A stretch of 43,319 bases of DNA from a phage, in sequence record PX907400.1; one strand, written 5' to 3'. Below are positions 1 to 43,319 of this stretch, piece after piece. The notes under the pieces were generated by a model. That model was not told the DNA's origin and did not search any database. It saw only the letters and a program-made list of their open reading frames with translations. Positions within the stretch are counted from its first letter, which is position 1, and the number at the start of each line of letters is the position of its first letter. Both the position numbers and the translations under genes were made by a program.

Positions 1-99
1 GGCGGCCCCCGCCGCCTTGGTAAGCCCGTTCAGTTGTGATGTGGTTTTATCGACGCCGGTCGATGATACTCGTACTATCAAGCTAGCGGTATCAGCCAT
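1..99 (-). CDS. tail tape measure protein, first 33 codons (gene continues across the window boundary into 41142..43319)
   Basis: ATG at 99..97 overlaps the stop of the upstream chaperone ORF (ATGGCTGA); the frame is open to position 1 and in frame with the ORF running off the other window end. Confidence 0.5.
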   Translation of the reverse strand, partial: MADTASLIVRVSSTGVDKTTSQLNGLTKAAGAA

Positions 100-424
100 G
101 ATTTCTACCTTCAAAGATTGCTTCTAAGCCCATGATAATGTCTATCTCGAACAGGCTAAGCTGTTTTTGCGTAACATCGAGATAGGCTTTCAGGTCTTGC
201 CACGTAACGGATTCTCTTGCGAACAATACTACAGCGTCCTCGCGCACGTGTCGCGTAAACTTAATGTCGCAGTACGTCTCGAAGGTGGATATAAAAAGGG
301 GCGGGCATTCTGGCCCACCCCGTCGCGCTGCACGTTTTTTCTTATCGATTACACCCATCGCGATAAGCGCCTGTTCGTGTCCGTCGGCTATAGAATCAAA
401 CTCTCTGATTTTATGCTTATCCAC
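92..424 (-). CDS. tail assembly chaperone, -1 frame extension ORF (gpT-like), probably expressed as a G-T fusion
   Basis: Open -1 frame overlaps the last codons of ORF 457..873 and sits between the chaperone and tape measure genes; GGAAAAG near the G stop. Confidence 0.5.
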   Translation of the reverse strand: MDKHKIREFDSIADGHEQALIAMGVIDKKKRAARRGGPECPPLFISTFETYCDIKFTRHVREDAVVLFARESVTWQDLKAYLDVTQKQLSLFEIDIIMGLEAIFEGRNHG

Positions 425-456
425 AAACTCATAGGTGGCGAACCTGTACAGCGCGT

Positions 457-873
457 CTACTTTTCCTGTAATGCTTTGCGCTCAGCGTTATGGAACGCCG
501 CTACCTGTGTGCCTAATGCCTTGAACTGGTCCAGCAATTTGTTAAATGCTTCTTTAGAGAAAGGCTCATCAAAGCTCCAGCCGTTTACGACTTCTGCCGC
601 GAGTTGCCGGTTGAGGTCTTCCGCCAGTTCGTTAATAGCCAGGTTATATTCAGTATAGTCGCCGGATTCTTTGGCGGCTTTTTCCAGTTCTTCGAAACGC
701 GCCAACCCGCGACGGTACGCAATAATGAAAGCACGCCCCGCTTTAACGGCGGCATCCGCATCTGGATTTACAACGTTAAGCCACTCACCGGAGTCTTCGC
801 CATTCGGCAGGAGAATCGGCATCTTCTTGCCCGCCAGTGCTTTCTCTTCGAAATAAAAATCAGAAAGTTTCAT
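457..873 (-). CDS. tail assembly chaperone (gpG-like)
   Basis: 138 aa ORF directly upstream of the tape measure start, ATG at 873, lambda G/T-like arrangement. Confidence 0.55.
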   Translation of the reverse strand: MKLSDFYFEEKALAGKKMPILLPNGEDSGEWLNVVNPDADAAVKAGRAFIIAYRRGLARFEELEKAAKESGDYTEYNLAINELAEDLNRQLAAEVVNGWSFDEPFSKEAFNKLLDQFKALGTQVAAFHNAERKALQEK

Positions 874-3437: not shown

Positions 3438-3440
3438 GAA

Positions 3441-3467
3441 AAAGGCCCCTCTCGGGGCCTTAGTTTT
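3441..3467. terminator. bidirectional rho-independent terminator between convergent genes
   Basis: AGGCCCC-TCTC-GGGGCCT stem-loop flanked by T-runs on both strands. Confidence 0.6.
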
Positions 3468-7816: not shown

Positions 7817-7840
7817 AATTTACCTCTTAGTAAATGAAAA

Positions 7841-7858
7841 GAGGGACCGAAGTCCCTC
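7841..7858 (-). terminator. stem-loop/terminator downstream of the major capsid gene
   Basis: GAGGGAC-CGAA-GTCCCTC hairpin followed by a T-rich run on the minus strand. Confidence 0.4.
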
Positions 7859-7875
7859 TCGATTATATCTTAACC

Positions 7876-8925
7876 TTAAGCCCCGACACCAGTTACCAGG
7901 AAGGCAATCGGTACATGCTTACGGTCAACCACACGGTTCCAGTTGGAGGCGTTCGCCAGGTCCTGCCAGGAAGCGGAGCGGGCGACAGTCTCGGTGCCGT
8001 TGCCGGTGATTACCGCGCTGGTGAAGCTGTAGCCCAGTGGGTGCAGCAACCAGGTCTTACGGGTCCACAGGGTTTCAACGCCGCCACCATTGCCGCGGGA
8101 CGCTTCACGTTCGTATTCCAGCGGGTTGGACGGGTTGCCTTCACCATAACCGATGGCACCGTTGCCAAAGATGATGGAGATGAACTTACGGCTTGGACCA
8201 GTACCAACTACAGTCATGCTGTCGTCAACAATCACACGGTAGCCCTGGTAGCTAGCAAACATGGTGTTGTTGTCAGCGTCGCGAATGAAGTCGATAAGCT
8301 GCTGCTTACGCGCCTGTGCATAAACGAAGCTGTGCATCGCGATAGCGCCCAGCACCTCACCACCGTTACCCATCAGAGCATCGCCCATAGTCTGAGTGGC
8401 GTCGATGAACGCACCTGCGTCGAAGCCCAGAGTAGCGGACACGTCGATAACCATATCGTTCTGCGTATGGTAAGCATCGGTAGCAGCTACGTTGTCGTTG
8501 TACAGACCGAGCGCGGTAGCAATCAGACGGCGTTGTGCCTGACGCTGCCAGAAGTTATCCAGACGGGACGCTACGGATTGCAGAGGGTTCTGGCTGGTCA
8601 GTTCGACAGTCAGGTCCGCCTGACCGAAACCTTCGTTCAGGTACGCAACGCGGGCCATCATCTCGCCAGTCTGCACATTACGCGGGGTAGCGATGTCCTG
8701 ATAAACATCGTTCGAGTAGTTAGGCTCGATAGAAGTATCAATCGCTTTCCAGAAAGGAATGTTGGCGACGTTGGACGGACCGCGAGCAATCTCGGCAGCG
8801 TACGGAGTCGGGGTCAGAATACCAGACTGGAAGAACGCGGTTTTTTCTACCGGGTCCTCGGTCATATAAGACGCCAGGACCGGGATGTTGCCAGTTACGA
8901 TATCGCCGATAGTGGTAATTGCCAT
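7876..8925 (-). CDS. major capsid protein
   Basis: 349 aa ORF directly after the scaffold gene, followed by a hairpin; called from position and size. Confidence 0.65.
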   Translation of the reverse strand: MAITTIGDIVTGNIPVLASYMTEDPVEKTAFFQSGILTPTPYAAEIARGPSNVANIPFWKAIDTSIEPNYSNDVYQDIATPRNVQTGEMMARVAYLNEGFGQADLTVELTSQNPLQSVASRLDNFWQRQAQRRLIATALGLYNDNVAATDAYHTQNDMVIDVSATLGFDAGAFIDATQTMGDALMGNGGEVLGAIAMHSFVYAQARKQQLIDFIRDADNNTMFASYQGYRVIVDDSMTVVGTGPSRKFISIIFGNGAIGYGEGNPSNPLEYEREASRGNGGGVETLWTRKTWLLHPLGYSFTSAVITGNGTETVARSASWQDLANASNWNRVVDRKHVPIAFLVTGVGA

Positions 8926-8927
8926 TA

Positions 8928-9683
8928 TTATTTCCTCAGGGCTTTAAGTTGCCGTTCAAATTCGGCAGGGTTCGATTTATACAGGGCTAAACGCTCTGCT
9001 TCACTCATGTCTTTAAACGCTGGTGCGGCCCCGCCGCCTTTGCTACCGGAAGCCCCGCCGCCGGAAGCTGCATTTGCTTTAATCAAATGCGAAAACGCTT
9101 TATGTTCGCGCAGGTATTTGCGGAACTGTTCCGGGTCAGTTGTGACTACGTTGCCATCCGCGCCGACAAACTTAGTAACCACATCATCACCTTCAAACTC
9201 AGTCTTAACGAACGGCGCGAGAATGTCTACTGCTTCCGGGGTAATGAAGTCACCCGCGAAAGAACCTAACACCGCTTTGCGTTCGCTGCCGAGGATGCGC
9301 TCTGCCATTCTGGAGATGCGACCATCTTTCTCGGCTAACACCGGGTCATACTGGCTACGAATCGTCTTTTCGAACTCGTCCATCTTACCGGCGGCTTTCA
9401 GGGCCTCCTGGTGCGCACGCTGCCGCTCTTCTTCGGCCTCTTTTGCTTTACGAGCGGCTTCTTTCTTCTCGTTCAGCAATGCTTCCTGGTTAGCCTTAAG
9501 CCCGGCGACTTCTTTCTCAATCAGCGCCTGCACTTCTTCGGCTGTGTACATTTTAGGTGCGTCACCGCCGCCTGATTTATCTTCTGCTCCAGCTTCTTCC
9601 TGGAACGGATAACGTAAAAAACGATTCATAGTCAGTATGTCCCCTGGACGTTGGAACCCGGGCCACCCGGATTTACATGTCAA
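8928..9683 (-). CDS. scaffolding protein
   Basis: Charged, helix-rich protein upstream of the capsid gene; track start is TTG at 9683, alternative ATG at 9629. Confidence 0.5.
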   Translation of the reverse strand: MTCKSGWPGFQRPGDILTMNRFLRYPFQEEAGAEDKSGGGDAPKMYTAEEVQALIEKEVAGLKANQEALLNEKKEAARKAKEAEEERQRAHQEALKAAGKMDEFEKTIRSQYDPVLAEKDGRISRMAERILGSERKAVLGSFAGDFITPEAVDILAPFVKTEFEGDDVVTKFVGADGNVVTTDPEQFRKYLREHKAFSHLIKANAASGGGASGSKGGGAAPAFKDMSEAERLALYKSNPAEFERQLKALRK

Positions 9684-12122: not shown

Positions 12123-13604
12123 TTATTGCTGGGTGGCATCCTGCTGTTGCGCCGACTGCGGAATCTCGCCAGTTACCTGAGTAACAGCGCCTAACGGCAC
12201 AGGTGCATCCTCAATAGCCGTTGTAATCTCCTCGTCAGTCCAGTCAGTTACCCCAGCCTTACGCAACGCGGCGTAGTAAGCAGTTGCCGGTAGTAAACCG
12301 GCATTAATGTCTGCCATCCACTGCGCACGGTCCTGAGCGGTCATTGGTTGCAGGAAGAATTCCATATTCAGCTTGAACTCAATTTCCGTTCCTTCGCGTA
12401 GACCCAGCATCGCAGCCACCCAACGCAACGCTTCGGTGTACGCCATGCTTACGTTACGCGCAATGGTTGCCATTACGGACGTATCGGCAGCACGTTGCAG
12501 GCGAGCGGATTCGGCGGTGATTTGCTGCGTAGGCGTGATAAGCTGTGCACCAATCTGGATTGCCTGATTCTCTTTATCCAACATGTTCTGTTTGGCGAGG
12601 TTATTCTCTCCCGCCTGGACCAGAAACGCGTTGCCGCCGTAGCCGATATTGTGGCCAGAACGTGAACCCATACGTACGCCGTGGGGGTTGGCCTCTTTCC
12701 ATTGCACCATGCTCATGTTCTCACCGGGGGCGATGAACAGAGTGGGCTGGCCTACAACGAAGCTAGATTCCTCATTGTCTGCGCTGTTGCGAAAATGCCC
12801 GATATTAAGCTCAGCTAACGGCAGCAAAGGCGCGTCATCAACCGTCGCGTCGTTGTTGCTGGCCCCGATGAACGTGAACGGGATTTTACCGCGCAACTGT
12901 TCGCCCAGTTCCGGGAAGATTTCTATTACTTCGTCTTGCGCGCCGCCTTCCGCATCGAATCGGTATATGCGCTGACGGTAGCGCCCGTCAATCAAGTCGA
13001 GAACGCGGTATTGTTCCCCAGACTTGGTTTCAAACTCGGCTCCAGGTTCTGAATATTCCCATACCTCACGCAGCACTACCATCGTAACGCGGTTAACAGA
13101 GCCTACGCGAGTGAGTCGCCAGTTGATGATGTTCTCTGCGGTATAGAATGCGATGACCGGGTTTAATAATCCGGCGTTCTGTTCGGCTGCCGTCGCTGCC
13201 GCTGTCTCCGGCGCATCCACCAGTAAACCGCCACGACCCACCGAGTCAATCTCCATCAGCGTATCCTGCGCGTGCTGCCACAGGCCAACACCCGAGCCAT
13301 CGGCATTGCGTAACAGGTATTCCAGTTCACGTGGAATAATCTGCTCCGGGTCTTTTCGCATTACCGAGCCAACCATACCCGACAGGGTACGCTTGGTGAA
13401 ATTGTAGCAGATAGCGCCGTTCTCGTATTCTTCCTGGCGCTGGACTGCATAAGTTGGGTCCGGCTCGTTCTTCCCGACGTTTCGCAGATAGCGGATAAGG
13501 TCACCCTCCAGTGCGTGGCGCACCTTCTGCCATTTATCGAAGTGATGCAGCCATTCCCGGTGTTTTGTCTTAACACCCTGATTCTGACCGTTCATAGTTA
13601 ACAT
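12123..13604 (-). CDS. portal protein
   Basis: 493 aa ORF immediately after the large terminase; AAGAGGA Shine-Dalgarno; called from position and size. Confidence 0.65.
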   Translation of the reverse strand: MLTMNGQNQGVKTKHREWLHHFDKWQKVRHALEGDLIRYLRNVGKNEPDPTYAVQRQEEYENGAICYNFTKRTLSGMVGSVMRKDPEQIIPRELEYLLRNADGSGVGLWQHAQDTLMEIDSVGRGGLLVDAPETAAATAAEQNAGLLNPVIAFYTAENIINWRLTRVGSVNRVTMVVLREVWEYSEPGAEFETKSGEQYRVLDLIDGRYRQRIYRFDAEGGAQDEVIEIFPELGEQLRGKIPFTFIGASNNDATVDDAPLLPLAELNIGHFRNSADNEESSFVVGQPTLFIAPGENMSMVQWKEANPHGVRMGSRSGHNIGYGGNAFLVQAGENNLAKQNMLDKENQAIQIGAQLITPTQQITAESARLQRAADTSVMATIARNVSMAYTEALRWVAAMLGLREGTEIEFKLNMEFFLQPMTAQDRAQWMADINAGLLPATAYYAALRKAGVTDWTDEEITTAIEDAPVPLGAVTQVTGEIPQSAQQQDATQQ

Positions 13605-13616: not shown

Positions 13617-14867
13617 TTAAAGTGCGAAAGTCACAGGGATGTTGATTACTGGTTTAACCACCGGCATCTCGTAAACTACAGGATAGCCAAGCGCATCTGC
13701 CATATGGTCGATAATGCCGTCTTTAGCTGGCTCTCCGTTGTCGTCGTACGCCTGTTGCTCCAGCGTCTTGGCTATCTCCGGGCATAAGTGGTCGTTAACC
13801 CACAGCTTACCTTTTTCCAGCGCGGTATTCACGGCTAAAACACGGTCTTTAACTGGTGGGTTGGCGGATTTAGCCCGTACATCGAAACCGGCCTGCTGGA
13901 GTAGGGCGATGTCAGAGATGGACGCCGAGTTGGTCTTGCGGTTCTTGCCGCTGGCGTCCGGGTACACGACGATGCGGTGGCCTTGCGACTTCCACTTCTC
14001 AGTAATTACGCGCACGGTATCCGGTGTATCGAACAGGCCTTTCAGTTCTGCTACCGCGTGCCAGCCGTCTTTACGTTGCACATACACGGCGCTTGCGTTC
14101 TTCGTAACGTTGAAGTCCTGCCCGATGTACAACGTGTCGCCCGGTTGAATTACCTCTTTGCTGCGGTGCTTACGGCGGTCATATGCGTAATACACGCTGC
14201 CGGAGGTAAGGTTGACGAACTCACCATTCAGATACGCGTTAATCAACTGCGCCGGATAAGTCTCGGTCAGCGAACTAATGTAGTCAGGTGGCAGGAATCG
14301 CGCGTTCTCGTGTGTAGAAGCCTGCACCATCGAGTAACTCGGCGTCGGGTTCTCTTTGAACTTGGCGTAGACGAACTTGAACCCTTCCGGTGTCGTGGTG
14401 ACAGAGATGTGGTTAATTACACCAGGAATAACAAGACGCATACGGGCGACAATTTTGTTCCACGCCAGCTCAGCTTTCTCACGGCTCAATACATCAAGCT
14501 CATCCACAACCGCAGCAGCGATTTTGAAGCCGACTATCGAGCCTGGGTTATCCATAGAACGGCAGATAACTGTACCGAGCACCGTCTTACCGCGAGTAAC
14601 CACGACTTCTTTGTCGCCAGATTTAACCAGCACATCGAGTCCGAGCAGGTTAGCGGCTTCCTCAAATGTCGGGTAGAAGATGTCACGGATAGCCGGGTAT
14701 GTCGGACCGAAGTAACCCAGGCGCGTACCTGGATGCTTGAGCATAAACGTAAGCAGGTCAAGGCAGCCAACAAATGTCTTTCCGCTGCCGAAGCCGCCGA
14801 CATATGCCTTATATTTGTTATCACAATTCAGGAACAGCGCCTGCGGTGCGGATAGCTGAATACTCAT
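13617..14867 (-). CDS. terminase large subunit
   Basis: Walker A GGFGSGKT near the N-terminus; start overlaps the small subunit stop. Confidence 0.8.
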   Translation of the reverse strand: MSIQLSAPQALFLNCDNKYKAYVGGFGSGKTFVGCLDLLTFMLKHPGTRLGYFGPTYPAIRDIFYPTFEEAANLLGLDVLVKSGDKEVVVTRGKTVLGTVICRSMDNPGSIVGFKIAAAVVDELDVLSREKAELAWNKIVARMRLVIPGVINHISVTTTPEGFKFVYAKFKENPTPSYSMVQASTHENARFLPPDYISSLTETYPAQLINAYLNGEFVNLTSGSVYYAYDRRKHRSKEVIQPGDTLYIGQDFNVTKNASAVYVQRKDGWHAVAELKGLFDTPDTVRVITEKWKSQGHRIVVYPDASGKNRKTNSASISDIALLQQAGFDVRAKSANPPVKDRVLAVNTALEKGKLWVNDHLCPEIAKTLEQQAYDDNGEPAKDGIIDHMADALGYPVVYEMPVVKPVINIPVTFAL

Positions 14868-15409
14868 TCCTCTACCTCACCCATATTCGTTGTTACAATT
14901 TTACCTACAGGCTCTGCAACACTAAAAATAATCTCGGTCGGTGCCGTTTCTTCGGTGGATTCAACTGGTTTCTCTTTGCCGAGGCCCAGCTTAGCGGCAG
15001 CAAATGTAGCCGAGATTCCCGCGGCCCCTGTCTCAGTGAAGTATGCCTCTTCCAGTGCCTGTGCGGTCTCCCAGGCTTCTGCGAATGCTGGAATCTCACG
15101 CAGCCATAGCTTAATAATAGGGATAGTGACGCCGATGTGTAAGGCAAAGCGGGCCAGTGACGGCGGTTTATCCTGAATCAGCGGGCGTTCGTCACCCTTA
15201 GACGTAGGCACGAGTTCCCACGACGTGCGGTCGAAGAACTCGATTAACGCGTCGCAATAGTCCGGGTCCCACAACGCTGCGGAATTACGGGACGATTGAT
15301 AAAGGCTCTGTTTACCGCGCGGTCGTTTACGGCGGCGGTTTGCGCTAACAGCTTCTTCATGTGCAGCTTGCACCACCTCTGGCGATGGCTGCTTGAGTTT
15401 CAGCTTCAT
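14864..15409 (-). CDS. terminase small subunit, putative
   Basis: Directly upstream of and overlapping the large terminase; ATG 15409 has GAGGGG Shine-Dalgarno (track ORF extends to 15448). Confidence 0.5.
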   Translation of the reverse strand: MKLKLKQPSPEVVQAAHEEAVSANRRRKRPRGKQSLYQSSRNSAALWDPDYCDALIEFFDRTSWELVPTSKGDERPLIQDKPPSLARFALHIGVTIPIIKLWLREIPAFAEAWETAQALEEAYFTETGAAGISATFAAAKLGLGKEKPVESTEETAPTEIIFSVAEPVGKIVTTNMGEVEE

Positions 15410-15507
15410 AGAATCCCCTCGCATATGCGTCTGACCATCAGAGCGCATCAGACGCGCCCTACGCGTCTAAAGGGATTATATAAGGGGATTGGGCGGGATG
15501 TACAGAA

Positions 15508-32609: not shown

Positions 32610-34026
32610 GTTTCAAAGGCGCGAATACCAGAAGCTCATGACTTCGTTCATGCTGCGGCACCATCGCTGCAATATCTGGGCGAGCATGGGCAGCGGTAAG
32701 TCGGGGTCAACGTTGTGGGTTCTCAATCGACTGTTCCGTAATGGGCAACTTAATGACGACGACCGAGTGTTAATTCTGGCTCCTTTACGTGTTGCGTCCG
32801 GTACGTGGCCCGCAGAACAGGCACGTTGGAACTTCCCCTGTCTGAGTGTCGTAGACGCAACCGGTTCAGAGAAGCGCCGTATCGCGGCGCTGGAGTCAGA
32901 TGCTAACGTGGTGTGCACAAACTACGAAGTTATCGAGTGGCTTATTGACTACTACGGCAAAGACGACTGGCCTTTCACAGTTATCGTTGCCGATGAGAGC
33001 ACGAAGCTGAAATCGTTCCGTAGCCGTTCTGGGGGTAGCAAGCGGGCAAAGGCGCTTAGCAAGGTAGCATTCGGTAAGGTTAAGCGTTTTATCAACCTGA
33101 CCGGTACACCGTCGCCTAACGGACTTAAGGACCTGTGGGGGCAGAACTGGTTTATAGACGCGGGCGAGCGCCTCGGTTCTTCGTATACAGCGTTCACCGA
33201 CCGCTGGTTCAACTCTGTACAGAAAGGCAAATCGGCGATGGCGCGTGAGTATCACGCCCGCCCGGGTGCGGATACCGAGATTCATCAGAAGATGAAGGAC
33301 ATTAGTCTCACGATTGACGCTGCCGAGTGGTTCGGTTGCGAAGCGCCGATTATCGTACCGGTTGAAATAGACCTGCCGAAGAAAGCACGCCAGGCGTACA
33401 TCGATATGGAGGAGAAGTTATTCGCGGAACTGGAGAGCGGGGAAGTAGAAGCGGCTAACGCCGCAGCGAAGACGTCAAAGTGTTTGCAGATTGCATCCGG
33501 CGCCGTATATGTGTCAGGGCCGGACGGTGAGGCAACGAAAGACTGGGAGAAAGTGCACGACACGAAACTGGATGCGCTGGAGTCAATTGTTGAGGAGTTG
33601 CAGGGTGCGCCGTTACTAGTCGCCTATCAGTTCAAGCACGAACTGGAGCGCATCCTCAAGCGCTTCCCGCAGGCGCAGGCTTTTGCAAAAGGCGCGAAGG
33701 GCAATAAGCAGATGGAAGCGTGGAACCGCGGCGAAATCGAGATTTTGTGCGTCCACCCTGCGTCAGCCGGTCATGGTTTGAATTTACAGGACGGCGGACA
33801 CCATCTGGCGTTCATCTCGCAAGGCTGGAACCTTGAACACTATTTGCAGGTTGTCGAGCGTATAGGCCCTGTCCGCCAGAAACAGGCAGGTCATGAGCGC
33901 CCGGTGTTCCTCTATCACATCGTTGCAAAAGACACGCTGGACGAGGTTGTTGCCGCGCGTACTGACGAGAAGAAATCCGTCCAGGAAGAGTTGCTTAACT
34001 ACATGAAGAGACGAGGTAAGAAATGA
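32602..34026 (+). CDS. SNF2-family (DEAD/DEAH-like) helicase
   Basis: GSGKS P-loop, VIVADEST box, C-terminal helicase motifs (HGLNLQ...QVVERIGPVRQ). Confidence 0.7.
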   Translation: MSKFQRREYQKLMTSFMLRHHRCNIWASMGSGKSGSTLWVLNRLFRNGQLNDDDRVLILAPLRVASGTWPAEQARWNFPCLSVVDATGSEKRRIAALESDANVVCTNYEVIEWLIDYYGKDDWPFTVIVADESTKLKSFRSRSGGSKRAKALSKVAFGKVKRFINLTGTPSPNGLKDLWGQNWFIDAGERLGSSYTAFTDRWFNSVQKGKSAMAREYHARPGADTEIHQKMKDISLTIDAAEWFGCEAPIIVPVEIDLPKKARQAYIDMEEKLFAELESGEVEAANAAAKTSKCLQIASGAVYVSGPDGEATKDWEKVHDTKLDALESIVEELQGAPLLVAYQFKHELERILKRFPQAQAFAKGAKGNKQMEAWNRGEIEILCVHPASAGHGLNLQDGGHHLAFISQGWNLEHYLQVVERIGPVRQKQAGHERPVFLYHIVAKDTLDEVVAARTDEKKSVQEELLNYMKRRGKK

Positions 34027-34226
34027 ATAATGAGTTTGATATTGACGCCTGCAACGAATTGGTAAAATCTGCTCTTAATGCCCGCGAGCAACTTCTTGCT
34101 ATGCAGTTAAAGCGAGAAATAAAACGTATCAAGGAACTTGAAGAGGAGGTTCTACGACTACGGCAGCAAAGAGACGCCGCTAACGCACAACTGGCGTTTG
34201 TACTGGAGAAGCTATCAGAAGAGTAG
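34023..34226 (+). CDS. small coiled-coil protein
   Basis: 67 aa helix-rich, last gene of the rightward operon. Confidence 0.45.
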   Translation: MNNEFDIDACNELVKSALNAREQLLAMQLKREIKRIKELEEEVLRLRQQRDAANAQLAFVLEKLSEE

Positions 34227-34228
34227 AG

Positions 34229-34257
34229 AAAAGGCCCCGTTTGGGGCCTTAGTTTTC
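34229..34257. terminator. bidirectional rho-independent terminator
   Basis: AAGGCCCC-GTTT-GGGGCCTT with T-runs on both strands; overlaps the tailspike stop. Confidence 0.6.
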
Positions 34258-37209
34258 TTTATCTTCTAGTGCTGCCAGCCTCTTCTCGAACTCGCGCATC
34301 TTCTTACGCTGATAGGCAATCTCTATGAAGAACATCTGGTCCGCCCTAACTCCCCATCTGCCGCCGGGAGGGGATACTTGTACAGTCTGGCCATCTTCAT
34401 CAATATCATACGCAGCTTCAATTGAGTCGTAGCACAAGAAAGCATATTTACAACTGGTAGAATCTTTCTCCATAAGCCCATGGTTGACCAAGATGTCTCG
34501 CACATCTTGGGCTATCACACCGAAGTGTATCCTTGCAGTGTCACCCTTGATTGCTAGGCTTTCAAGCCACTTAAAAGATATTACATGTATATCTTCCCAT
34601 GCGGTAAGGAGTTGTCCCTCAATTTCCTCTTTGTTCGTCTTAAGTGTACCATCAGACGTGTTTATCGTACCGGTGGTCGCGTACACCGTAGTCCACCTAT
34701 TAACTGCCGAACCTAAAGACACTCGCGAGTCTAAGTAAGGAAGGAAATTGTTGTATGAGTAGAAGCCTCCTGACGCATACATAATAGCCCTGTTAGGCTT
34801 TGCATGGTTTGCCCCGTACAGTTGCAGCAACGCACCATCGGAACGGGATGCACCATCACCACCGCTAACTATCAGTCTTTGAGCCGATGGGGTTTTAGTG
34901 GGGACTGTTTTTGAAATCAGCCCGTAATCACCATCAAACCGTGCGCGCACGGCAGACTGTTGTGTACCATCGTATTCCAGCCCCGTTACATGCAGGGAGT
35001 ACACGCTTACATCATTGTCAAACGTTAAAGGTGCTTCTACATGGCGTACACCATCTACCCCCATGGCGACAGGTATTGTACGGTTAGGAGTTGCTCCGTA
35101 TTTGAAATCACGTGATACGTACGGGTGGTCTTCAATCTTTATCCGGTAGCTATATAAGTCAGCCGGATGCCCATCATGTTTGTACCATAACCTCGCACTG
35201 TTATCCCCTATGCTCCAGGGAGAGAAGAAGTCTTCCCCACCAAAGATATAGTACAACCAGCCATCTTTAACACAGACCGAGCCGACGCCGACAGCAGAGT
35301 TAACGATATGACCCTGGTATATTTGGTCGGTAATATTAAACCACTGAACATCATCTAAAGATGAAGGCCAGGACGACACATTAACTTTGCACATAAAGGT
35401 CCTCGGATACGAACCTTCATAGCGGCTGTCCTGCTCGCCACCTTCCCACTCACCAAAGGCACGTTCTGTACCAAAGATGTAGAGATAGTCACCTACTTTA
35501 GCGAACGGAAGATTGGAGTGATGTACATTGTTCGGAAATCGCAAGTAGCTCCAGTTTTGCCCAGAATCGGTGCTCATCGCCAGTGTAGAGCCAGGGGAAG
35601 TGGGTAATGTGCCGCGTGTGGTAAGGTATAACACACCACCATAACTTTTCACACACGGCTCAGAAGCGTTATCAGCGTATGCCTGAGCGACAGTGCGACG
35701 AACGAATACGCCAGGATTGTCATACACGTTACTAAAATACAAGACACCGAGACGCCTAGGGGACACATCGCCGTTGTGATAGCCGACAGCGATAGTGTAG
35801 TTAACATCATCTATAGCCGCAAAACTATGTGTCTCCGTGACACACAAATCAGCGTTAGGGGAGTATGCTACCCCAGGCAATTCGGTAATTTCCCACGGGC
35901 TGTCCCAGAATCGCGTTGCGAAGTTCCAGGTAACACCCGCATTGTTTATGGTGGAACTCGCCGGGCTTGAGAGCGTAACAGTGAACGTATTTCGGTTAAT
36001 TATAGACGAAACCGTCATATTACCCGATACGCCAGTTGCCGATGTATTAGAGAAGTTAACCGCATCTCCTGCTTTTAGGCCATGATTTTCTATGACAATG
36101 GTAGCAGTAGTGGAGCCAGAACTAATAGTTATTCCGCCGGTTGGGTGTCTAAAATACGGCATTGGGCGTGACCAAAGTTCTGCCTTCTTCATCCGCATAT
36201 TAGATAAGTAGCGGGTTTCTATAACTGCATATAATCGGTTGCCGCACGTACCCATGCTCATGCAGTGGTAGTTAACTCTGTCCGTAGGAACACTAGCATT
36301 ATAGTCAGCATGGATTGGAGTCAACCACTCAGGCATTGACCAAGTCTGCCCGTCGTCTCCAGAGCGAACCCAAGCTACATGTAAGTTTTGAACACCATGT
36401 CGTTCGCCCGCCATAAACGGGGCGTAAATAACATGGTCGTAGACGAAAGTTTTATCCTGCGTCCATGCGTTGTAGAACGGGGCATCCGTCACCTTAGTTA
36501 GTGAGCCGTTAAAGAAGCCATCAGCTACATAAGTAAGCGGTTGCCCGGCTACGCGCTCGTAAACGAATGCAGCATTCTTAAATTTACTAATGTCAGGTAA
36601 TTGGGAAACTTTATAAGTCAAACCCCTGCCGTCTATAATCCAATTGTTGGGGGAAGCTGCTAATACATTAAAAATAGATTGAGTATCATCAGTTACGCCG
36701 TCACCCACGGCGCCCCATGCGCGCGGGTCGTATTCGTCCTTCCATCGCGCCACATGTAAATCTGGGTACAGAATTGCACCGTTTACATCAGATATTTGCT
36801 GCCGCAGTATGACCGACCCGACAGGCTGCCACGCCCCATCTGCCACGCCACCGGTGGACTGCGGAGAAGATGACGCCGGGATAATTTTTGGTAGAGCACC
36901 CAACCAATAGTACCAATCCCCGTCACCGCCAGAGGACGACGGCCACAAAACTGCGGTGTTTCGGTCGTTAGCGGATAGTGTACCGCCTGACGTGAAATCA
37001 AAATCTGCCAGTTTAAAACCAGCATCACGCAACACGGCAGGTAACGTCTTCTGGGTCTGTCCAGTAACCTGATTTGTCGCGTAATCAATATCGGCACCAC
37101 CGGCGACACCGCCGGATTTGCCAGTGATAACCTCGGCCTCGAAAATCTGATGTTTCTTGGCGGTTTGTAAATCCGCCAGGCTTAAAACGTCACCGCATCC
37201 GCTTGACAT
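34249..37209 (-). CDS. tailspike with sialidase-like Asp-box beta-propeller and C-terminal intramolecular chaperone (peptidase S74-like)
   Basis: Asp-boxes SGDDGQTWS and STDSGQNWS; C-terminal SDGTLK cleavage-type motif and chaperone-like tail; AGAGGA Shine-Dalgarno. Confidence 0.7.
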   Translation of the reverse strand: MSSGCGDVLSLADLQTAKKHQIFEAEVITGKSGGVAGGADIDYATNQVTGQTQKTLPAVLRDAGFKLADFDFTSGGTLSANDRNTAVLWPSSSGGDGDWYYWLGALPKIIPASSSPQSTGGVADGAWQPVGSVILRQQISDVNGAILYPDLHVARWKDEYDPRAWGAVGDGVTDDTQSIFNVLAASPNNWIIDGRGLTYKVSQLPDISKFKNAAFVYERVAGQPLTYVADGFFNGSLTKVTDAPFYNAWTQDKTFVYDHVIYAPFMAGERHGVQNLHVAWVRSGDDGQTWSMPEWLTPIHADYNASVPTDRVNYHCMSMGTCGNRLYAVIETRYLSNMRMKKAELWSRPMPYFRHPTGGITISSGSTTATIVIENHGLKAGDAVNFSNTSATGVSGNMTVSSIINRNTFTVTLSSPASSTINNAGVTWNFATRFWDSPWEITELPGVAYSPNADLCVTETHSFAAIDDVNYTIAVGYHNGDVSPRRLGVLYFSNVYDNPGVFVRRTVAQAYADNASEPCVKSYGGVLYLTTRGTLPTSPGSTLAMSTDSGQNWSYLRFPNNVHHSNLPFAKVGDYLYIFGTERAFGEWEGGEQDSRYEGSYPRTFMCKVNVSSWPSSLDDVQWFNITDQIYQGHIVNSAVGVGSVCVKDGWLYYIFGGEDFFSPWSIGDNSARLWYKHDGHPADLYSYRIKIEDHPYVSRDFKYGATPNRTIPVAMGVDGVRHVEAPLTFDNDVSVYSLHVTGLEYDGTQQSAVRARFDGDYGLISKTVPTKTPSAQRLIVSGGDGASRSDGALLQLYGANHAKPNRAIMYASGGFYSYNNFLPYLDSRVSLGSAVNRWTTVYATTGTINTSDGTLKTNKEEIEGQLLTAWEDIHVISFKWLESLAIKGDTARIHFGVIAQDVRDILVNHGLMEKDSTSCKYAFLCYDSIEAAYDIDEDGQTVQVSPPGGRWGVRADQMFFIEIAYQRKKMREFEKRLAALEDKEN

Positions 37210-37221
37210 ATAGAGTCCTCT

Positions 37222-39777
37222 TTAATTAAAACCATTGCTGAATCCGTCGGAGAAACCGCTGCCGTATGGCGCGACGCCGTCGTATTTGTAGAATCCGTCG
37301 TCATAGTTGTAGCCAGTAATCTTGACCGTGCGGTCGTCGCCAGGGTCGATTGAAGAAACAACTATCTTCTGAGCATTATGCCTTGCTTCGTTGCCGAATG
37401 AAAACTCAGTTTTTAGTGCGCTATTCCCCGTGTAGATTGCTTCTTCCGGCGCGGAGAGCATAATCACTTCGCGGTCGTGGCTTCCTTTGATAACGGAGAT
37501 ACTCTGTACAGAGCCATCGCGCTTCTTGAGGATGATGGAGTGGTCATCACCCGGAGTAAACGTAACCGGCTGTGACAGTGTCAGCGTAAGCCCATTAACG
37601 GCAGCAACATAGCCGTCCTGTGGCGCAATACGCGAGCCTTTAACTACGCTGATTACACCGCCTGGAGTAGCGAGCGCACCTTCTTCGGTAGCTTCAAACT
37701 CTACGACAACTTTACTTAACGCATTGCGCTGATAGCGACGCCACGCCAGCCAATACGCCTGCTGATAGTTACGTACGCCCTTCGATTCGTATTCCTCTGT
37801 ATTTGCCCCGAGTTCTTCCGGGATGTAAATCGTTTCCCGTACGTTAGTATCCGGGTCGATGTATGAGAACGACAGGCTATCGTAGGTTGTCGAATCGTTG
37901 AACGTGCGGGTCCATTTCTCGGTACCGGTAGTTTTGCTGCGGTGGGTGAACACCATTTCAGGCCCCGCGACAGGACGGTCGAATCGCAGCATAATATCCG
38001 CACCTTTACGGTACGCAGTACAGAAAACGGCTTCCGCTATGGTCTGGACGATGTCCTGCATGGTTGTGTCATAGTCGTCGAACGTGTAGCAGAATTGCCC
38101 TGCTAATTCACTTCCGAAATAGGACTCAATTTCTTCCTGCACAGCAAGTAACTTGTCCATGTTTGCCGTTGTCAGTTCCAGATTGCCTACTGCGGGGTCG
38201 CGCGCCAGTCGAATTAGAGATTGTACGGCTTGCGTGTTCGGTGTCATTACTGTATCGAATACCCCATTGCCGAGGTATTTGTAACACATCTCGGTTGCAA
38301 TCATGCGCAGTTCCGGGTTGTCTATGCTGGCGGCACGCGGCGTCTGTTTACGGGTGCAATGTACGGTAGTTCTGTTGCCGTAGTGTGGAGTGGTGTCCAG
38401 AGACTGCCCATACAGGTTAATGAATGTTATCTCGTCGCTTACCGTACCGTCGTAGTCTTTATCGAAATTAGTTACACGACGCATACGGGCGCGGAAACGG
38501 GATGCGGTCGGCAATTGCCCGTAGATAGACGTACCGACGTAATCCGTATTGTTGCCTGTAATTGTGGCCTGTACCGTGTAAATATCGCTCAACGGGTTAC
38601 GCTGAGAATCAATCATCTGGTACTGGAGTTCCACCGTTACACTGGTGCGGTTATAGCCTCCGTCGTATTTGTAGAGGCCGTTCTGCCCGGCAACGTTAGC
38701 AAGTACCCGGTCAACCTCTCCGCGCACCATGTAATACCAGTCCGTAAGAGATACGTCATAGGTGTTGCTTGGGCCTATAAACGTATCCGAACGCTCTGTA
38801 AGTGCGTAAGTCTCTCCGTTATTAAGGTTGCCCCAGTTACCTATATCCCCGACGTACAACCGAACCTCAAAGTCGTCGACGTATAAAACTTCAAACGAGC
38901 CGTTCAGGTTAGTGACGTCCTTAACGTCGAAATTGCTCAACACTGCGACATCACCAACACTAAGAAACTCAGAAAAAGCAGAGTCGCCTGACGGATCATA
39001 GATGTAGCCAGTGTTTGAAATACGTTTAGCTGTGCCGTCGGCGCTTGGGTTAGCTCCGATGTCGTTTGGCGCTTTCAGCACAATACCGTCAACGTCGTCG
39101 TTGGAGTATGTCACATAGAGTTTCTGGTCAATGACGTCGCCGATTTGTAGTTGCGGAGATGCGGTGTTGTTCGGTGACGTATACGGCGCATATACGGCAA
39201 CAGATGAACCTGTGATGTCGCTTATCAGGGTGTCGCCCTCTGTGACGCCATCAGCCTCAATATGCAGATGTCCGCGCCCTGCGTCATAGTACGAATACTC
39301 CAGCAAAGCACCAGTGGAGTTGAACGCCTTATACGTCTGCATCAGGTCATTAGGGATTGTCTGCACAGTCCCGCAGATGTCATAGGAGCGCTCGTAAGGG
39401 CGTGGTTTGTTTGAGCGGTCTGTGAGGCTGTTATTTGGTGATGTTGTCTGGTTGTTAGTCGCCGTGTAGTTGGCGTTGGCGGCCGTGTTCAGGCCAAACA
39501 ACTTGGCGATTGGCTTAAGGATAAAACCAAACACCTTACTAACCGCACCGAGCGCCCCGCTACCCGCACCCTCAATAATGTGGTACACAGCGTCTTCATC
39601 TTTAAGCGCGTCGAAGTCGTCGGTGACATCAGTATCATCGCCAATCTCGCCCAGGTAGACGCGCACCGGCACGCCGTCCTGGATACGGTTAACGACAAAC
39701 TCCATCGGCATCCCGACGTGTTTTGTACGGTCAAAAGCGCCATCAGCGTTTCGCGTGTAGTGCAGGATTATCGCCAA
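37222..39777 (-). CDS. tail tip / host specificity protein (gpJ-like)
   Basis: 851 aa ORF after the NlpC/P60 gene in lambda-like order; TTG start with GGAG Shine-Dalgarno. Confidence 0.5.
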   Translation of the reverse strand: MAIILHYTRNADGAFDRTKHVGMPMEFVVNRIQDGVPVRVYLGEIGDDTDVTDDFDALKDEDAVYHIIEGAGSGALGAVSKVFGFILKPIAKLFGLNTAANANYTATNNQTTSPNNSLTDRSNKPRPYERSYDICGTVQTIPNDLMQTYKAFNSTGALLEYSYYDAGRGHLHIEADGVTEGDTLISDITGSSVAVYAPYTSPNNTASPQLQIGDVIDQKLYVTYSNDDVDGIVLKAPNDIGANPSADGTAKRISNTGYIYDPSGDSAFSEFLSVGDVAVLSNFDVKDVTNLNGSFEVLYVDDFEVRLYVGDIGNWGNLNNGETYALTERSDTFIGPSNTYDVSLTDWYYMVRGEVDRVLANVAGQNGLYKYDGGYNRTSVTVELQYQMIDSQRNPLSDIYTVQATITGNNTDYVGTSIYGQLPTASRFRARMRRVTNFDKDYDGTVSDEITFINLYGQSLDTTPHYGNRTTVHCTRKQTPRAASIDNPELRMIATEMCYKYLGNGVFDTVMTPNTQAVQSLIRLARDPAVGNLELTTANMDKLLAVQEEIESYFGSELAGQFCYTFDDYDTTMQDIVQTIAEAVFCTAYRKGADIMLRFDRPVAGPEMVFTHRSKTTGTEKWTRTFNDSTTYDSLSFSYIDPDTNVRETIYIPEELGANTEEYESKGVRNYQQAYWLAWRRYQRNALSKVVVEFEATEEGALATPGGVISVVKGSRIAPQDGYVAAVNGLTLTLSQPVTFTPGDDHSIILKKRDGSVQSISVIKGSHDREVIMLSAPEEAIYTGNSALKTEFSFGNEARHNAQKIVVSSIDPGDDRTVKITGYNYDDGFYKYDGVAPYGSGFSDGFSNGFN

Positions 39778-40133
39778 AATTCAATCTCCGTGTACGTGTC
39801 TCTGAGGTCCGCCAGCCTGTCAAGCCGTACCTGACGGGAAGCAAGCTCGCAATGGCTAACCATCCCGTCGAAGTATACTCCTGCATGCCACACGATACGA
39901 CCACCACGGCGATACCCCATAAGCACCGCACAGAAGTTTTCAGGCTTATCAATTTTTGTAAGCCCCTTCGTGTTGCGATGCCCTTCGTCAAACGCGTCGT
40001 TAATTGCCGTTGGGCTTGTAACATCGAAAGCCGGGGTTTCTAACCCGGCGTCCGCACGTACAATGCGCACGTGATGCCAGCAATTGCGTTTGCGAAAGTC
40101 GTAAGGTATTCCCGTGTAGTCGTTAATATTCAT
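39768..40133 (-). CDS. NlpC/P60-like tail assembly protein (gpK-like)
   Basis: Catalytic-type NCWHH and WHAGVY motifs. Confidence 0.5.
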   Translation of the reverse strand: MNINDYTGIPYDFRKRNCWHHVRIVRADAGLETPAFDVTSPTAINDAFDEGHRNTKGLTKIDKPENFCAVLMGYRRGGRIVWHAGVYFDGMVSHCELASRQVRLDRLADLRDTYTEIEFWR

Positions 40134-40645
40134 GTGGTCAACAGGCCGCGTAATAACGGTATCTCTTTAGGTGTCATCAGTATACCAGTGCTTCGTTGGT
40201 TCAGCATAGGCGTACCAACATCCGCAGAGAACTCGCCTTTCTCCTGGTTAATGGCCTGCAACTCGTACACGACAGGACCGTCAGCGGGATAAGACAGGTC
40301 GGTGCTGACATAACGGCGGAAGACGAACTTCGGCAACTCGGTGTTACTCATCGGGATTTTATCCATCTCATCATCCAGTTGATTGAGAATATCCGGTAAA
40401 GTAAACGAGGTCGTCTGGTCCATATCACTGTTGTTAGCGGCACCCGACGCCTCCATCGGGGTAGGTTCGAACGTGATTGTTTCGCCCGTCTCCAGTGTTG
40501 CCGTAAGTTCCTGCAGCCCGCGCACAAGATAGTACGTCTTCGATAGCAACGGGTGACTGATTTGCAACGTGATGTAGTCCATCTCGCCGTCGGGATTTGA
40601 GGCCAGCTTACGGCGATAGGCTGCTTCTACTGATTCCTGACTCAT
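40130..40645 (-). CDS. minor tail protein
   Basis: ATG 40645 overlaps the upstream stop (track gives TTG at 40660). Confidence 0.45.
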   Translation of the reverse strand: MSQESVEAAYRRKLASNPDGEMDYITLQISHPLLSKTYYLVRGLQELTATLETGETITFEPTPMEASGAANNSDMDQTTSFTLPDILNQLDDEMDKIPMSNTELPKFVFRRYVSTDLSYPADGPVVYELQAINQEKGEFSADVGTPMLNQRSTGILMTPKEIPLLRGLLTT

Positions 40646-41142
40646 TGCATCGGGTCCCAAATTCGTGGAAACGTTGATTGTGCAGTTCCGTAGGCTTTAA
40701 GGAAACACCCCAGCCCGTCACCATAGCAACCGTACAAATCTGGCAGATTGTTAATCAGGCACTGGTTCTCAAGGTCCTGGAACGGCGATTTCTCGGCGGT
40801 TGCCGTGAAGGTGATTGTCCAGTTAATCCCGTCTTCGGTGGACTCGGCGATAGTGGACGTAATGGTTACCTGATAATCTTCGATGCCCATGCCGAAGTCG
40901 TGCGCCATCCAGAAACTTGACGCACCGCCGTCTACTTTTTCGAGGAACGACAGAAACGCCTGTCGCCCCATTGCGGATGTAATCAGGGTTACGCTAACAG
41001 GGAACACGTCGTAATACGTGTCACGGCCCTGACGCACCCCGCCACCGGCTAAATCTACACTCCAGACGTTGTTACGTCTGGTCATTGAGTAGCCTTTCGA
41101 TACAATTGGCTTAAGGCTACGTGGGAAATATAAGTCGCTCAT
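40642..41142 (-). CDS. minor tail protein
   Basis: 166 aa immediately after the tape measure gene. Confidence 0.45.
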   Translation of the reverse strand: MSDLYFPRSLKPIVSKGYSMTRRNNVWSVDLAGGGVRQGRDTYYDVFPVSVTLITSAMGRQAFLSFLEKVDGGASSFWMAHDFGMGIEDYQVTITSTIAESTEDGINWTITFTATAEKSPFQDLENQCLINNLPDLYGCYGDGLGCFLKAYGTAQSTFPRIWDPMQ

Positions 41143-43319
41143 TATTTAAACCCCGGCGCATTTCTTGTGGCTTTGCGGGCCTTGCTAATCTTGCTGTTGC
41201 TGTTCTGCAAAGAGGCAGCCACCTGCTCCTCGATGATGATTCGCAAACGGCCTTCATCATCTTGCTCAGTGGATACGTTGCCGATTTGAGAACTCGTGTT
41301 GTTTACGATAGTAACATTAGACGGGCCGGAAGAAGACCCGTTTTGCCCCATAATTTCTTTCATCTGCTGTGCTGTGCGAACACGAGATGCGCCAGCCGGC
41401 ATAATAACTTCTGGTTTACCGCGTTCTGCGATGGTGGAAGCCTGCCCTGCGGATAACTGTCCGCCCTGTTCACGCGCGGACCGGATAGCGGAAACCTGCG
41501 CCATACCTGCACCAACGGCAGCGGCAGCGGCTACAGGGGCCAGGAACGGGCCAACTACAGGGATAGCTGCCGTTGACTTGTACGCCTCAATAGCTGCGGT
41601 GTACGTGGCGATAGTGGCCTGTACGATAGCGAATGCCTTGTACGCGCCAGAAGCCTCACCCAACGCAGACCCGATGTTTGAGGCCATGTTACCAAAGGCC
41701 GTTGCCGTTGCATCGGCACGTTTGGTTGCGTATTGCTCGTTGATGGCGTTAAGAGCGGCCTGATACTGCTTCTCGCTAATCAAACCCTGCTCGCGGTACT
41801 TATCCGCTACCGCCAGTTTCTGCTGTTCCTGGATGTCGAGAAGCTCAAGCTCAGTAGCGTTCTGACCCATAATCTGAGCCATGAAGTCGTCGCCTTTCTG
41901 CTGCTTTTCCTGGGCTTCTTTCTGGCGTTTATCCAGTTCATCTTGTCGTTTTTGCCCGGCTTCGAGGACGATAGCTGTTTTAGCCTGTTCGTATTCTTTC
42001 AGCGACAGCGCGCCCTGGCTGTAGAACTCTTTTGCCTTAGCCAGTTTCTGCTGTTCCTGCGCGTCGATAGCCTTTAACTCATCGTTGTTCTGGCGAGCCA
42101 AAGTGTCGAGGTAATCCTGCGCCTGATTCCGCAATTGTTCTGCTTTCTTGGCGGCGGCTTTTGCTGCTTTATCGTCGGTGTTTCCTGCCCCGCCAGTTCC
42201 GCCCTTTTTATTAACAAGACTGGCTAAGTCAATTTCTTGCTTCTTGCGCTCGTCGTACTGCTTGCGCTGTTCCTCAATTTCTTTCTTACGCTGCTTAGAC
42301 CTGTTGGTAATGGCCTGTGATTCTGCCTCTGCGCGTTTTATGCTAGCGGCGTACGCGGCGTCGGCCTCTGCGGTCAGGTTTTTAAATGTTAGCGCCGCCG
42401 TTTTGCTCGGGTCAAACACGTCGGCAAGGGTCTGCCCTAACGCTACAGCGTAATCGTCGATGCGCTGGAACCACGCAATAACCTCGTGAAATGTCTGCTG
42501 GATGTCCGGCAACCACTCACGGATGGCATCCGGTATAGTCCCCAGCGAGTCAGACATATCAACGGATTTGTCCTCGGTATCGAATGCCAGGTCATTCAGG
42601 GCGTCAGAAATAAACTTGAACGATTCATTGAACAGTGTCACCCAATCCTGGAGCGTGGCGGCTATCTCATTAGACGCGATGGCGTCGGTAAGCGCCGTGA
42701 TAGCGTCTTCCGCTGTGGCCGCTTGCTCACCTACGGCGTCGCCAAAACCAGACTGCGCCACCGCAAGAACAAGACCGTCGAAGGAGTCGGCGAGGCTCGA
42801 TAACTGGCCGTCTAGCGTCTTAGAGCGCGTCTCCATCGCCCCGGCAAAATCGGTGTTGCCGATATTCAGGAGGTATTTCTGAATCTCTTCGGAGTTCTTC
42901 TTAACCGTGGTCGTTACGCCGCGGAACGTGAACGAAACTGTATCTGCCTGTTGCGACGACTTGATGCCGAACTCTTTTAAGCGCTCAAATTCAAATGTAC
43001 TGGCGTCGGCAACTGCCTCAATCATCTGATTAAGGTCTTTACCCATAGCCGCCGCGGTGTTGCCGTAGGAGATTAACGCCTCTTTGCTGGGGTTCAGACC
43101 GAGCGCAACGAGCTTGGTAAACCCCTCTACCGCCTGATTGAGACCGTACGGGGTCTCTTTTGCAAACTGTTGCAGGACGCTGAAAGCCTTAGCCGCGTTC
43201 TCGGCGCTCCCGGTCATCGTGATGAGGCCGGAGTTCAGCTTATCGAAGTTTCGCTGGGAATCCACCAGCGCGCTGAACACCTGCTTAGCGGTTTCCAGAC
43301 TGACAACGGCGGCGGCGGC
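41142..43319 (-). CDS. tail tape measure protein, C-terminal ~725 codons (5' end lies at 1..99)
   Basis: Long Ala/Gln/Lys-rich helical protein upstream of the minor tail genes; frame stays open past the track start 43280 to the window end. Confidence 0.7.
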   Translation of the reverse strand, partial: AAAAVVSLETAKQVFSALVDSQRNFDKLNSGLITMTGSAENAAKAFSVLQQFAKETPYGLNQAVEGFTKLVALGLNPSKEALISYGNTAAAMGKDLNQMIEAVADASTFEFERLKEFGIKSSQQADTVSFTFRGVTTTVKKNSEEIQKYLLNIGNTDFAGAMETRSKTLDGQLSSLADSFDGLVLAVAQSGFGDAVGEQAATAEDAITALTDAIASNEIAATLQDWVTLFNESFKFISDALNDLAFDTEDKSVDMSDSLGTIPDAIREWLPDIQQTFHEVIAWFQRIDDYAVALGQTLADVFDPSKTAALTFKNLTAEADAAYAASIKRAEAESQAITNRSKQRKKEIEEQRKQYDERKKQEIDLASLVNKKGGTGGAGNTDDKAAKAAAKKAEQLRNQAQDYLDTLARQNNDELKAIDAQEQQKLAKAKEFYSQGALSLKEYEQAKTAIVLEAGQKRQDELDKRQKEAQEKQQKGDDFMAQIMGQNATELELLDIQEQQKLAVADKYREQGLISEKQYQAALNAINEQYATKRADATATAFGNMASNIGSALGEASGAYKAFAIVQATIATYTAAIEAYKSTAAIPVVGPFLAPVAAAAAVGAGMAQVSAIRSAREQGGQLSAGQASTIAERGKPEVIMPAGASRVRTAQQMKEIMGQNGSSSGPSNVTIVNNTSSQIGNVSTEQDDEGRLRIIIEEQVAASLQNSNSKISKARKATRNAPGFK

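Follow-up and report, generated by a model that had tools for sequence, protein, structure and literature searches.

Phages of the genus Kagunavirus (Guernseyvirinae) already serve as a phage-therapy model for K1 E. coli, and their complete genome records span 40.8-45.8 kb. The genomes of K1ind1, K1ind2, K1ind3 and P AB-2017 measure 41-43.5 kb, their records begin at the large terminase gene, and their tape measure protein (TMP) is 757 aa long; the records of the three K1ind phages and of K1G were deposited as circular. In both of the full-length gene tables that were compared (K1ind2 and K1ind3), the gene at the position of the small terminase straddles the record origin. Packaging has been described for the Guernseyvirinae-like phage Shashou, for which PhageTerm predicted a pac mechanism (PMC6776780), and for the Jerseyvirus SeF1, which has 'redundant, random, permuted' ends (PMC9409062); for the Kagunavirus fBC-Eco01, no obvious or detectable termini were reported (PMC9825357).

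The DNA analysed here, which we refer to as the window, is the whole of phage record PX907400.1 at its full length of 43,319 nt; unlike the records of K1ind1-3 and P AB-2017, it begins inside the TMP gene. By nucleotide comparison, the window is a distinct new phage of the known genus Kagunavirus (Guernseyvirinae). Megablast gave 92-94% identity over 81-95% of each window half to K1G, fTaEco01 and MirsaeidiM_Esher4; coverage multiplied by identity comes to approximately 80% (a rough product), with the ICTV genus line at about 70%, and the gene order of the K1G/K1ind type is conserved. The best overall match, MirsaeidiM_Esher4 (PQ579973), is 92.3% identical over 90% of window positions 1-25000 and 94.5% identical over 81% of positions 25001-43319. 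As the product of aligned fraction and identity for this phage (again a rough estimate, of about 80%) lies below the 95% phage species line, the window represents a distinct member of the genus. K1 phages of the K1G and fTaEco01/fKuEco01/UTI89UKE1 type show 93-94% identity over 93-95% of positions 25001-43319, which contain the endosialidase tailspike, tail and replication genes, but their similarity is lower in the left half of the window and in the region where its two ends meet (94.7%). K1ind2 is fully collinear with the window in gene order and nearly identical to it in TMP (99.6%) and in the large terminase subunit (99.5%), but differs at other loci: its tailspike matches that of the window over the N-terminal 139 aa only (68%), its helicase-primase is just 32% identical, and its ORF23 has 466 aa where that of the window has 166.

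When the window was aligned by blastn with the circular genome of K1ind2 (42,765 bp), the alignment passed exactly once round the circle: window position 1 corresponds to K1ind2 position 14817, from which the match descends to 1, resumes at 42765 and brings window position 43319 to 14815. Of the 45 K1ind2 proteins, 43 were matched in the window, 41 of them near full length, and all follow the same order round the circle. The window (1..43319) can thus be described, from the blastn alignment and the collinear proteins, as one full turn of a Kagunavirus genome, opened in the TMP gene and in reverse orientation with respect to K1ind2. Its length of 43.3 kb falls within the range of complete Kagunavirus records, and it has collinear genes for packaging, head, connector, tail, lysis and replication. 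These results support the view that the window is probably a complete genome, as the preliminary description had proposed; its statement that all core modules are contained in 43.3 kb likewise held.

Alternatively, the window could have been taken from a larger replicon, be it a chromosome with a prophage, a phage-plasmid or a concatemer, in which case the matching frames at its ends would be coincidental or would derive from a tandem copy. Such DNA can occur in bacterial assemblies, as illustrated by CP088689.1, a related phage genome of 44,086 bp that is filed as an E. coli 'plasmid'; however, that record is itself genome-sized. The window covers a complete circular relative a single time, with neither surplus DNA nor a lost segment at the join. 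Pfam scans of all six-frame ORFs of 150 aa or more found no integrase, recombinase or transposase domains, the sole related item being a 56-aa HTH_17 protein, and the same scans of the window revealed no partition gene. Window positions 1-25000 had no megablast match among 5,426 complete E. coli genomes. We consider an origin in a larger replicon extremely improbable, and the prophage or excerpt reading was rejected on the basis of the single-turn mapping to K1ind2, the collinearity, the lack of a match for positions 1-25000 among the 5,426 complete E. coli genomes and the absence of an integrase domain from those ORFs. The absence of an integrase had also been noted in the preliminary description, and the phage is predicted to grow lytically on E. 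coli.

The genes described here lie on the minus strand. The putative small terminase subunit (TerS; 14864..15448) matches phrog_3064 'terminase' (E = 9e-73) and has 98.5% identity to its K1ind2 counterpart, the gene lying across the origin of the K1ind2 record. It is followed by the large subunit (TerL; 13617..14867), which contains the Pfam domains Terminase_6N and Terminase_6C, matches the PHROG for terminase large subunit and has an exact sequence common to K1G and P AB-2017, and by the portal protein (12123..13604; Pfam DUF4055), which is 99% identical to the K1ind2 portal. An endosialidase tailspike, predicted to act as a K1 capsule depolymerase and carrying a C-terminal intramolecular chaperone domain, is encoded at 34249..37209 (Pfam End_N_terminal, End_beta_propel with E = 1e-221, End_beta_barrel, End_tail_spike and Peptidase_S74). 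Tail tube and TMP genes are present and a sheath gene is absent, as judged from Pfam and the comparison with K1ind2, which would indirectly fit the siphovirus morphology of the genus. Rfam and tRNA scans of the window gave no matches.

Near the start of the window, two minus-strand ORFs form a tail-assembly-chaperone pair of the G/GT type. The G part (457..873) matches Pfam Phage_TAC_4 (E = 8e-6) and is 97.8% identical to the K1ind2 chaperone, and the second ORF (92..424), the putative T part, matches Pfam Phage_TAC_18 (E = 7e-19). From the coordinates, the second ORF is in the -1 frame relative to the first, and a joined chaperone CDS with the same 782-nt span is annotated in K1ind2, K1ind1 and K1G. 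The gene that we assign as TMP is a long ORF immediately downstream of this pair with its -1 frame relation, which is the place where the preliminary description had expected it. Residues 52-219 of its product match Pfam TMP_3 with E = 1.4e-9 and a score of 38.4 bits that falls just short of the curated cut-off (41), and the product is 99.6% identical over its full length to the K1ind2 protein annotated as TMP.

The TMP gene is divided between the two ends of the window. Its 5' part (1..99, minus strand; codons 1-33) starts with an ATG at 99-97 and continues without a stop codon for 33 codons to base 1, where it ends on a codon boundary; apart from the number of GGC units, this part is the same in K1ind1-3 and P AB-2017. 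The stop codon of the second chaperone ORF is the TGA at 94-92, and the junction of the two ORFs reads ATGGCTGA. The ATG at 99 had been described as overlapping the chaperone stop, with an ORF in frame to position 1: the open frame stands, but it is the ORFs that overlap, by 8 nt, and the ATG lies outside the stop codon itself. At the far end, the 3' part (41142..43319, minus strand; codons 34-758 and the stop codon at 41142-41144) has no stop in frame from 43319 down to that codon, and the GTG at 43280 is merely the first start codon within a frame that is already open. The distance from 43280 to 43319 is 39 nt, or 13 codons; base 43319 is therefore the first base of a codon and both ends share one frame, in agreement with the preliminary description. 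Joining the ends yields an ORF of 2,277 nt and 758 aa. By rough arithmetic, an open stretch of 33 codons has a chance of about 0.2, as (61/64)^33, and a frame match of 1/3; taken alone, the open frame and the frame match are weak evidence for contiguity.

Homology across the join decides the case for contiguity. A synthetic junction query made from the last 1,500 nt and the first 1,500 nt of the window aligned as a single piece, with 100% coverage and 97.4-98.5% identity, to P AB-2017, K1ind1, K1ind2 and K1ind3, in which the junction region (tape measure, chaperones, superinfection-immunity gene and metallophosphoesterase) is likewise in one piece. At least 80% of the query was covered by 43 phage records. 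A shorter query of 120 nt was spanned in one piece by all 35 of the phage records that matched it, and three IMG/VR contigs run across the junction as well. In a tblastn search, residues 1-757 of the K1ind2 TMP aligned across the join as a single HSP with 99.6% identity. In independent genomes of related phages, the two ends thus lie side by side without loss or duplication, the sole discrepancy being 3 nt in a (GGC)n tract. These alignments support the claim, made in the preliminary description, that the last and first bases of the window are contiguous inside the TMP gene. A 49-mer specific to the window returned one related IMG/VR contig (41,294 bp, 91-98% identical) and had no match in GTDB genomes; no independent copy of the exact junction was found with this 49-mer in IMG/VR and GTDB or with the exact TMP in a collection of 15 billion proteins. 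Exact copies of the joined 758-aa TMP, its 757-aa variant, the tailspike and the helicase-primase were all absent from the protein collection; of the sequences looked up, it contained TerL alone.

The break sits between TMP codons 33 and 34, inside an alanine-encoding (GGC)n tract. Four GGC units form the 3' end of the window (43308..43319; Ala codons GCC on the coding strand), and two more form its 5' end (1..6), where GGCGGC is the same as the last 6 bases and continues the tract. The joined tract of the window is (GGC)6; all eight aligned relatives have five triplets there, as an uninterrupted (GGC)5 in three of them. Over the 120-nt query, each of the 35 phage records is 3 nt shorter than the window, and the three IMG/VR contigs are likewise 3 nt shorter at the joined tract. 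This is most simply explained by an overlap of one GGC between the ends, in which case the true TMP would have 757 aa as in the K1ind phages and P AB-2017, which have one Ala codon fewer at the join. The earlier figure of about 758 aa thus fits the joined ORF as written, but the protein may have 757 aa, as the window carries one GGC more than every relative. Because of the 3-nt excess, the junction is not fixed to the base; the reading frame is preserved with either five or six GGC.

It is also conceivable, though we hold it to be the less probable course, that the extra GGC is real and lengthens the N-terminal Ala tract by one residue, with a TMP of 758 aa and a contig end that perhaps arose from tract length variation or poor coverage. 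The window as given does join in frame to encode 758 aa, triplet repeats are prone to slippage, and the tract tolerates change, being degenerate in some relatives (AGC or GCA in place of GGC). This has to be set against the deficit of exactly 3 nt in all 35 phage records and all three IMG/VR contigs; moreover, an arbitrary cut in a 43-kb genome would be unlikely to hit the one 18-nt stretch that bears an indel unless the break and the tract were causally linked, and such a link would make the contig end the least reliable sequence. We think it decidedly unlikely that the length of the tract is heterogeneous (5 or 6 units) within the phage population, which could explain a contig end at this place instead of chance; if true, the tract would be a slippage-prone microsatellite within an essential tail gene.

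Whichever number of GGC units is correct, the two ends share no direct terminal repeat and no assembler k-mer overlap beyond the 6-nt GGCGGC inside the triplet tract. That a gene spans the ends of the window, with neither fixed ends nor a terminal repeat in the assembly, shows that the window as written is, as far as its sequence goes, a rotated form of the circular map. In circle closure, in having a gene across the ends and in lacking a terminal repeat, it resembles Salmonella phage P22, which packages by the headful mechanism, and Shashou and SeF1, for which this mechanism is predicted, and its TerS/TerL pair adjoins the portal gene as in these phages. By analogy with its relatives, the virion DNA would be circularly permuted and terminally redundant. 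We attempted to assign a packaging class from TerL and dropped this as uninformative: there was no sequence match to solved terminases among PDB sequences, and the score of 53 bits against the PBSX-family model was well under the cut-off of 105.

A different possibility is that the genome is complete and its ends are neighbours, but that molecules in the virion terminate at defined sites in another part of the map, with cos ends or short direct terminal repeats that would probably lie close to the terminase genes. The break in TMP would then be no more than an arbitrary choice of the assembler or depositor. Some Kagunavirus records were deposited as linear; however, these begin at differing places, as arbitrary cuts would. 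The text of the fBC-Eco01 paper mentions cos recognition, in a generic description without data (PMC9825357), whereas PhageTerm and the other reports on relatives point to pac, to redundant and permuted ends or to no termini, and defined cos or direct-terminal-repeat ends are not reported for the subfamily in the literature on these relatives. TerL is without a clear class, and a collapsed direct terminal repeat would not show in a one-copy assembly. On balance, we regard fixed ends as unlikely.

It is highly probable, in our judgement, that the window is a complete phage genome in linear notation, and that its first base directly adjoins its last on a circular map that, as inferred from relatives, is closed through headful packaging. 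Under headful packaging, the terminase (TerS 14864-15448, TerL 13617-14867) would begin on replicated concatemers, at a pac site, and then cut by headful measure. Initiation at pac followed by headful cutting would give a sequence that closes into a circle, and the headful cuts would leave virion DNAs circularly permuted, with terminal redundancy. A circular assembly, opened at some arbitrary place, would result from the reads of such a permuted population. The place of the break has no biological meaning, and ends that split TMP are an ordinary outcome of how such phage genomes are assembled.

The value of these results is mainly practical, as the window adds one further endosialidase-bearing, integrase-free Kagunavirus and raises no new question. 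Because the record is opened inside the TMP gene, this gene will be called as two fragments or as a truncated ORF of 712 aa from the GTG at 43280. The record is best rotated so that it opens ahead of the small terminase gene, at about 15448 on the minus strand; the conventional map start would lie just upstream of this position.

The tail tape measure protein (TMP) gene lies on the minus strand and is split between the two ends of the window. Its start codon is an ATG at 99-97; the chaperone ORF upstream (92..424) stops at a TGA at 94-92 (sequence there ATGGCTGA), and the two ORFs share 8 nt. The stretch from 99 to 1 reads as 33 sense codons, with a codon boundary at base 1. At the far end, nothing interrupts the minus frame between 43319 and a stop codon at 41142-41144, and the called ORF 41142..43280 starts only at the first GTG within a frame already open; since 43319 − 43280 = 39, a codon begins at base 43319. 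Joined end to start, the ORF has 2,277 nt and encodes 758 aa. By itself this geometry is weak evidence for contiguity: by our own arithmetic, the chance of a 33-codon open stretch is ~0.2 and that of a frame match 1/3.

We placed the last 1,500 nt of the window before the first 1,500 nt and compared this synthetic junction with related phages. It aligned in one piece over 100% of its length to the Kagunavirus Escherichia phages P AB-2017 (98.5% identity) and K1ind2 and K1ind3 (both 98.4%), and 43 records covered at least 80% of it. In all cases the annotation beneath the matches was tape measure protein, tail assembly chaperone, superinfection immunity and metallophosphoesterase. The K1ind2 TMP (757 aa) gave a single tblastn HSP across the join in the circularised window (99.6% identity), and three IMG/VR contigs also traverse the junction. 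Thus the window ends are neighbours, contiguous within the TMP gene with matching frames, as the preliminary description had proposed.

The join itself falls in a triplet repeat. The window ends in (GGC)4 and starts with (GGC)2, giving (GGC)6 when joined (43308-43319 plus 1-6), an alanine run in the TMP N-terminus; GGCGGC forms both the first and the last six bases of the window. All eight aligned relatives have five triplet positions in this tract, uninterrupted as (GGC)5 in three. A 120-nt junction query matched 35 phage records, and all of them lack 3 nt relative to the part of the query that aligned: their span is 117 nt, except in three records where 119 nt of the query aligned and the span is 116 nt. 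A gapped pattern scan of IMG/VR allowing 12-21 nt recovered the 15-nt form alone, and on K1ind2 and three IMG/VR contigs the window ends overlap by 3 nt. We lean towards one redundant GGC common to both ends. Alternatively, the window phage may have a real one-alanine expansion. In relatives the TMP gene usually measures 2,274 nt (757 aa); those of RP180 and GZMU_E2010 have 2,271 and 2,280 nt. The frame is preserved with either GGC count. The ~758 aa first estimated for the joined protein agrees with the joined ORF, but the relatives' one fewer GGC makes 757 aa somewhat the likelier length. It is unlikely that an arbitrary cut fell by chance in the sole indel-bearing 18 nt; break and tract are therefore probably causally linked, for example because a GC-rich triplet repeat is poorly covered or varies in length.

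Against the circular K1ind2 record (42,765 bp), window base 1 corresponds to 14817 and the alignment descends to 1, wraps to 42765 and reaches 14815 at window base 43319, exactly one turn. The window matches 43 of the 45 K1ind2 proteins in conserved order (for 41, over nearly the whole length), and its 43,319 bp falls within the 40.8-45.8 kb of complete records among the matches listed. This bears out the earlier view of a complete genome with all core modules. Matched to K1ind2 proteins, consistently with Pfam and PHROG scans, were genes for packaging (small and large terminase subunits, TerS and TerL, and portal), head (SPP1-gp7/Mu-F-like head protein, decoration proteins, scaffold, major head protein), connector (adaptor, neck, terminator), tail (tail tube, chaperones, TMP, four distal tail proteins, tailspike), lysis (spanins, holins, endolysin) and replication (helicase-primase, family A polymerase, exonuclease, ssDNA-binding protein, SNF2 helicase, C5 methylase). 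A 592-aa open frame on the strand opposite the scaffold and major head genes (7834-9612, +) has no Pfam match and is most likely a shadow ORF.

A temperate phage, or an excerpt of a larger replicon, was rejected. A six-frame Pfam scan of all ORFs of at least 150 aa found no integrase, recombinase or transposase domain, in line with the earlier report that integrase is absent, and window 1-25000 had no megablast match among 5,426 complete E. coli genomes. The small early ORFs yielded nothing beyond an HTH_17 protein, DUF551 and a weak match to NinH. The sole 'plasmid' match, CP088689.1 (PLSDB; 44,086 bp, 87% identical across 69% of window 1-25000), is genome-sized and itself a related Kagunavirus phage; filed as a non-mobilizable plasmid from E. 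coli from human blood, it may come from a carrier state or from phage DNA that contaminated a bacterial assembly. Neither tRNA genes nor Rfam matches were found in the window. The HTH_17 protein (excisionase/AlpA-type helix-turn-helix, 56 aa, 21893-22063, +), which opens a plus-strand operon in this genome without integrase, is presumably a transcription regulator.

The window is a closed circular map written out as a rotated linear sequence, and no terminal repeat was found in it. Headful packaging from concatemers would yield terminally redundant, circularly permuted virion DNA and a circular map. For Shashou, a Guernseyvirinae-like phage, PhageTerm predicted pac packaging (PMC6776780). The ends of Jerseyvirus SeF1 are redundant, random and permuted, and genes spanning contig ends were noted in such assemblies (PMC9409062); Kagunavirus fBC-Eco01 lacks obvious termini (PMC9825357). 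This literature on relatives supports headful packaging. TerL has a Terminase_6N/6C match, a sub-threshold PBSX-family match and no sequence match to solved structures, a combination that does not discriminate between packaging classes. Headful packaging is likely for the window phage, whose virion DNA, to judge from the same relatives, would be physically permuted; fixed ends elsewhere (cos or DTR) are improbable. It is routine for the arbitrary origin of a circular phage assembly to fall inside a gene and split it.

Sequence similarity places the window in Kagunavirus (Guernseyvirinae). Its two halves matched 499 and 534 phage records, the best being the Escherichia phages MirsaeidiM_Esher4, K1G, fTaEco01 and UTI89UKE1 (92-94% identity over 81-95%), with no identical record in the collections searched. 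Coverage multiplied by identity against the best relative is ~80% (a rough figure of our own), which lies within the genus range and under the 95% usually taken as the species line. The phage adds a new member to this well-known genus. Its mosaicism is of the usual kind, resembling the K1ind phages around the junction and K1G in the endosialidase tailspike. The tailspike (34249-37209, −) is a complete endosialidase: it has all four endosialidase domains and a Peptidase_S74 chaperone. Its resemblance to the K1ind2 spike is limited to the N-terminal 139 aa, the adaptor (68%), and dependence on the K1 capsule is predicted. The helicase-primase (22469-24730, +; AAA_25 domain) is 32% identical to that of K1ind2, in the C-terminal part only, and is flanked by genes 97-99% identical to K1ind2; the region is a swapped replication module, and an IMG/VR contig of 41,294 bp carries the window's allele (98%). 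Just downstream of TMP, the product of a 166-aa gene (40642-41142, −) matches the 466-aa K1ind2 ORF23 over the N-terminal 162 residues of ORF23 alone; ~0.9 kb of K1ind2 is missing from the window.

Several non-coding elements were also observed. One of ~145 nt, with no Rfam match, occurs twice in direct orientation (10318-10459 and 21643-21787; 79% identity over 147 nt); K1ind2 and K1ind3 have the first copy only, between spanin and head-decoration genes, and the second lies between divergent genes, ahead of the replication operon. Five 30-nt plus-strand repeats (21449, 24984, 25028, 27724, 31430), each with TTGACA, 17 nt and TATTAT, lie 5' of plus-strand replication-module genes and are probably the phage's own sigma-70 promoters. 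Three similar GC-rich hairpins between A and T runs (3440-3467, 10524-10551 and 34229-34256; pattern AAAAGGCCCC...GGGGCCTT...TTTT) stand at gene-block boundaries and look like bidirectional intrinsic terminators.
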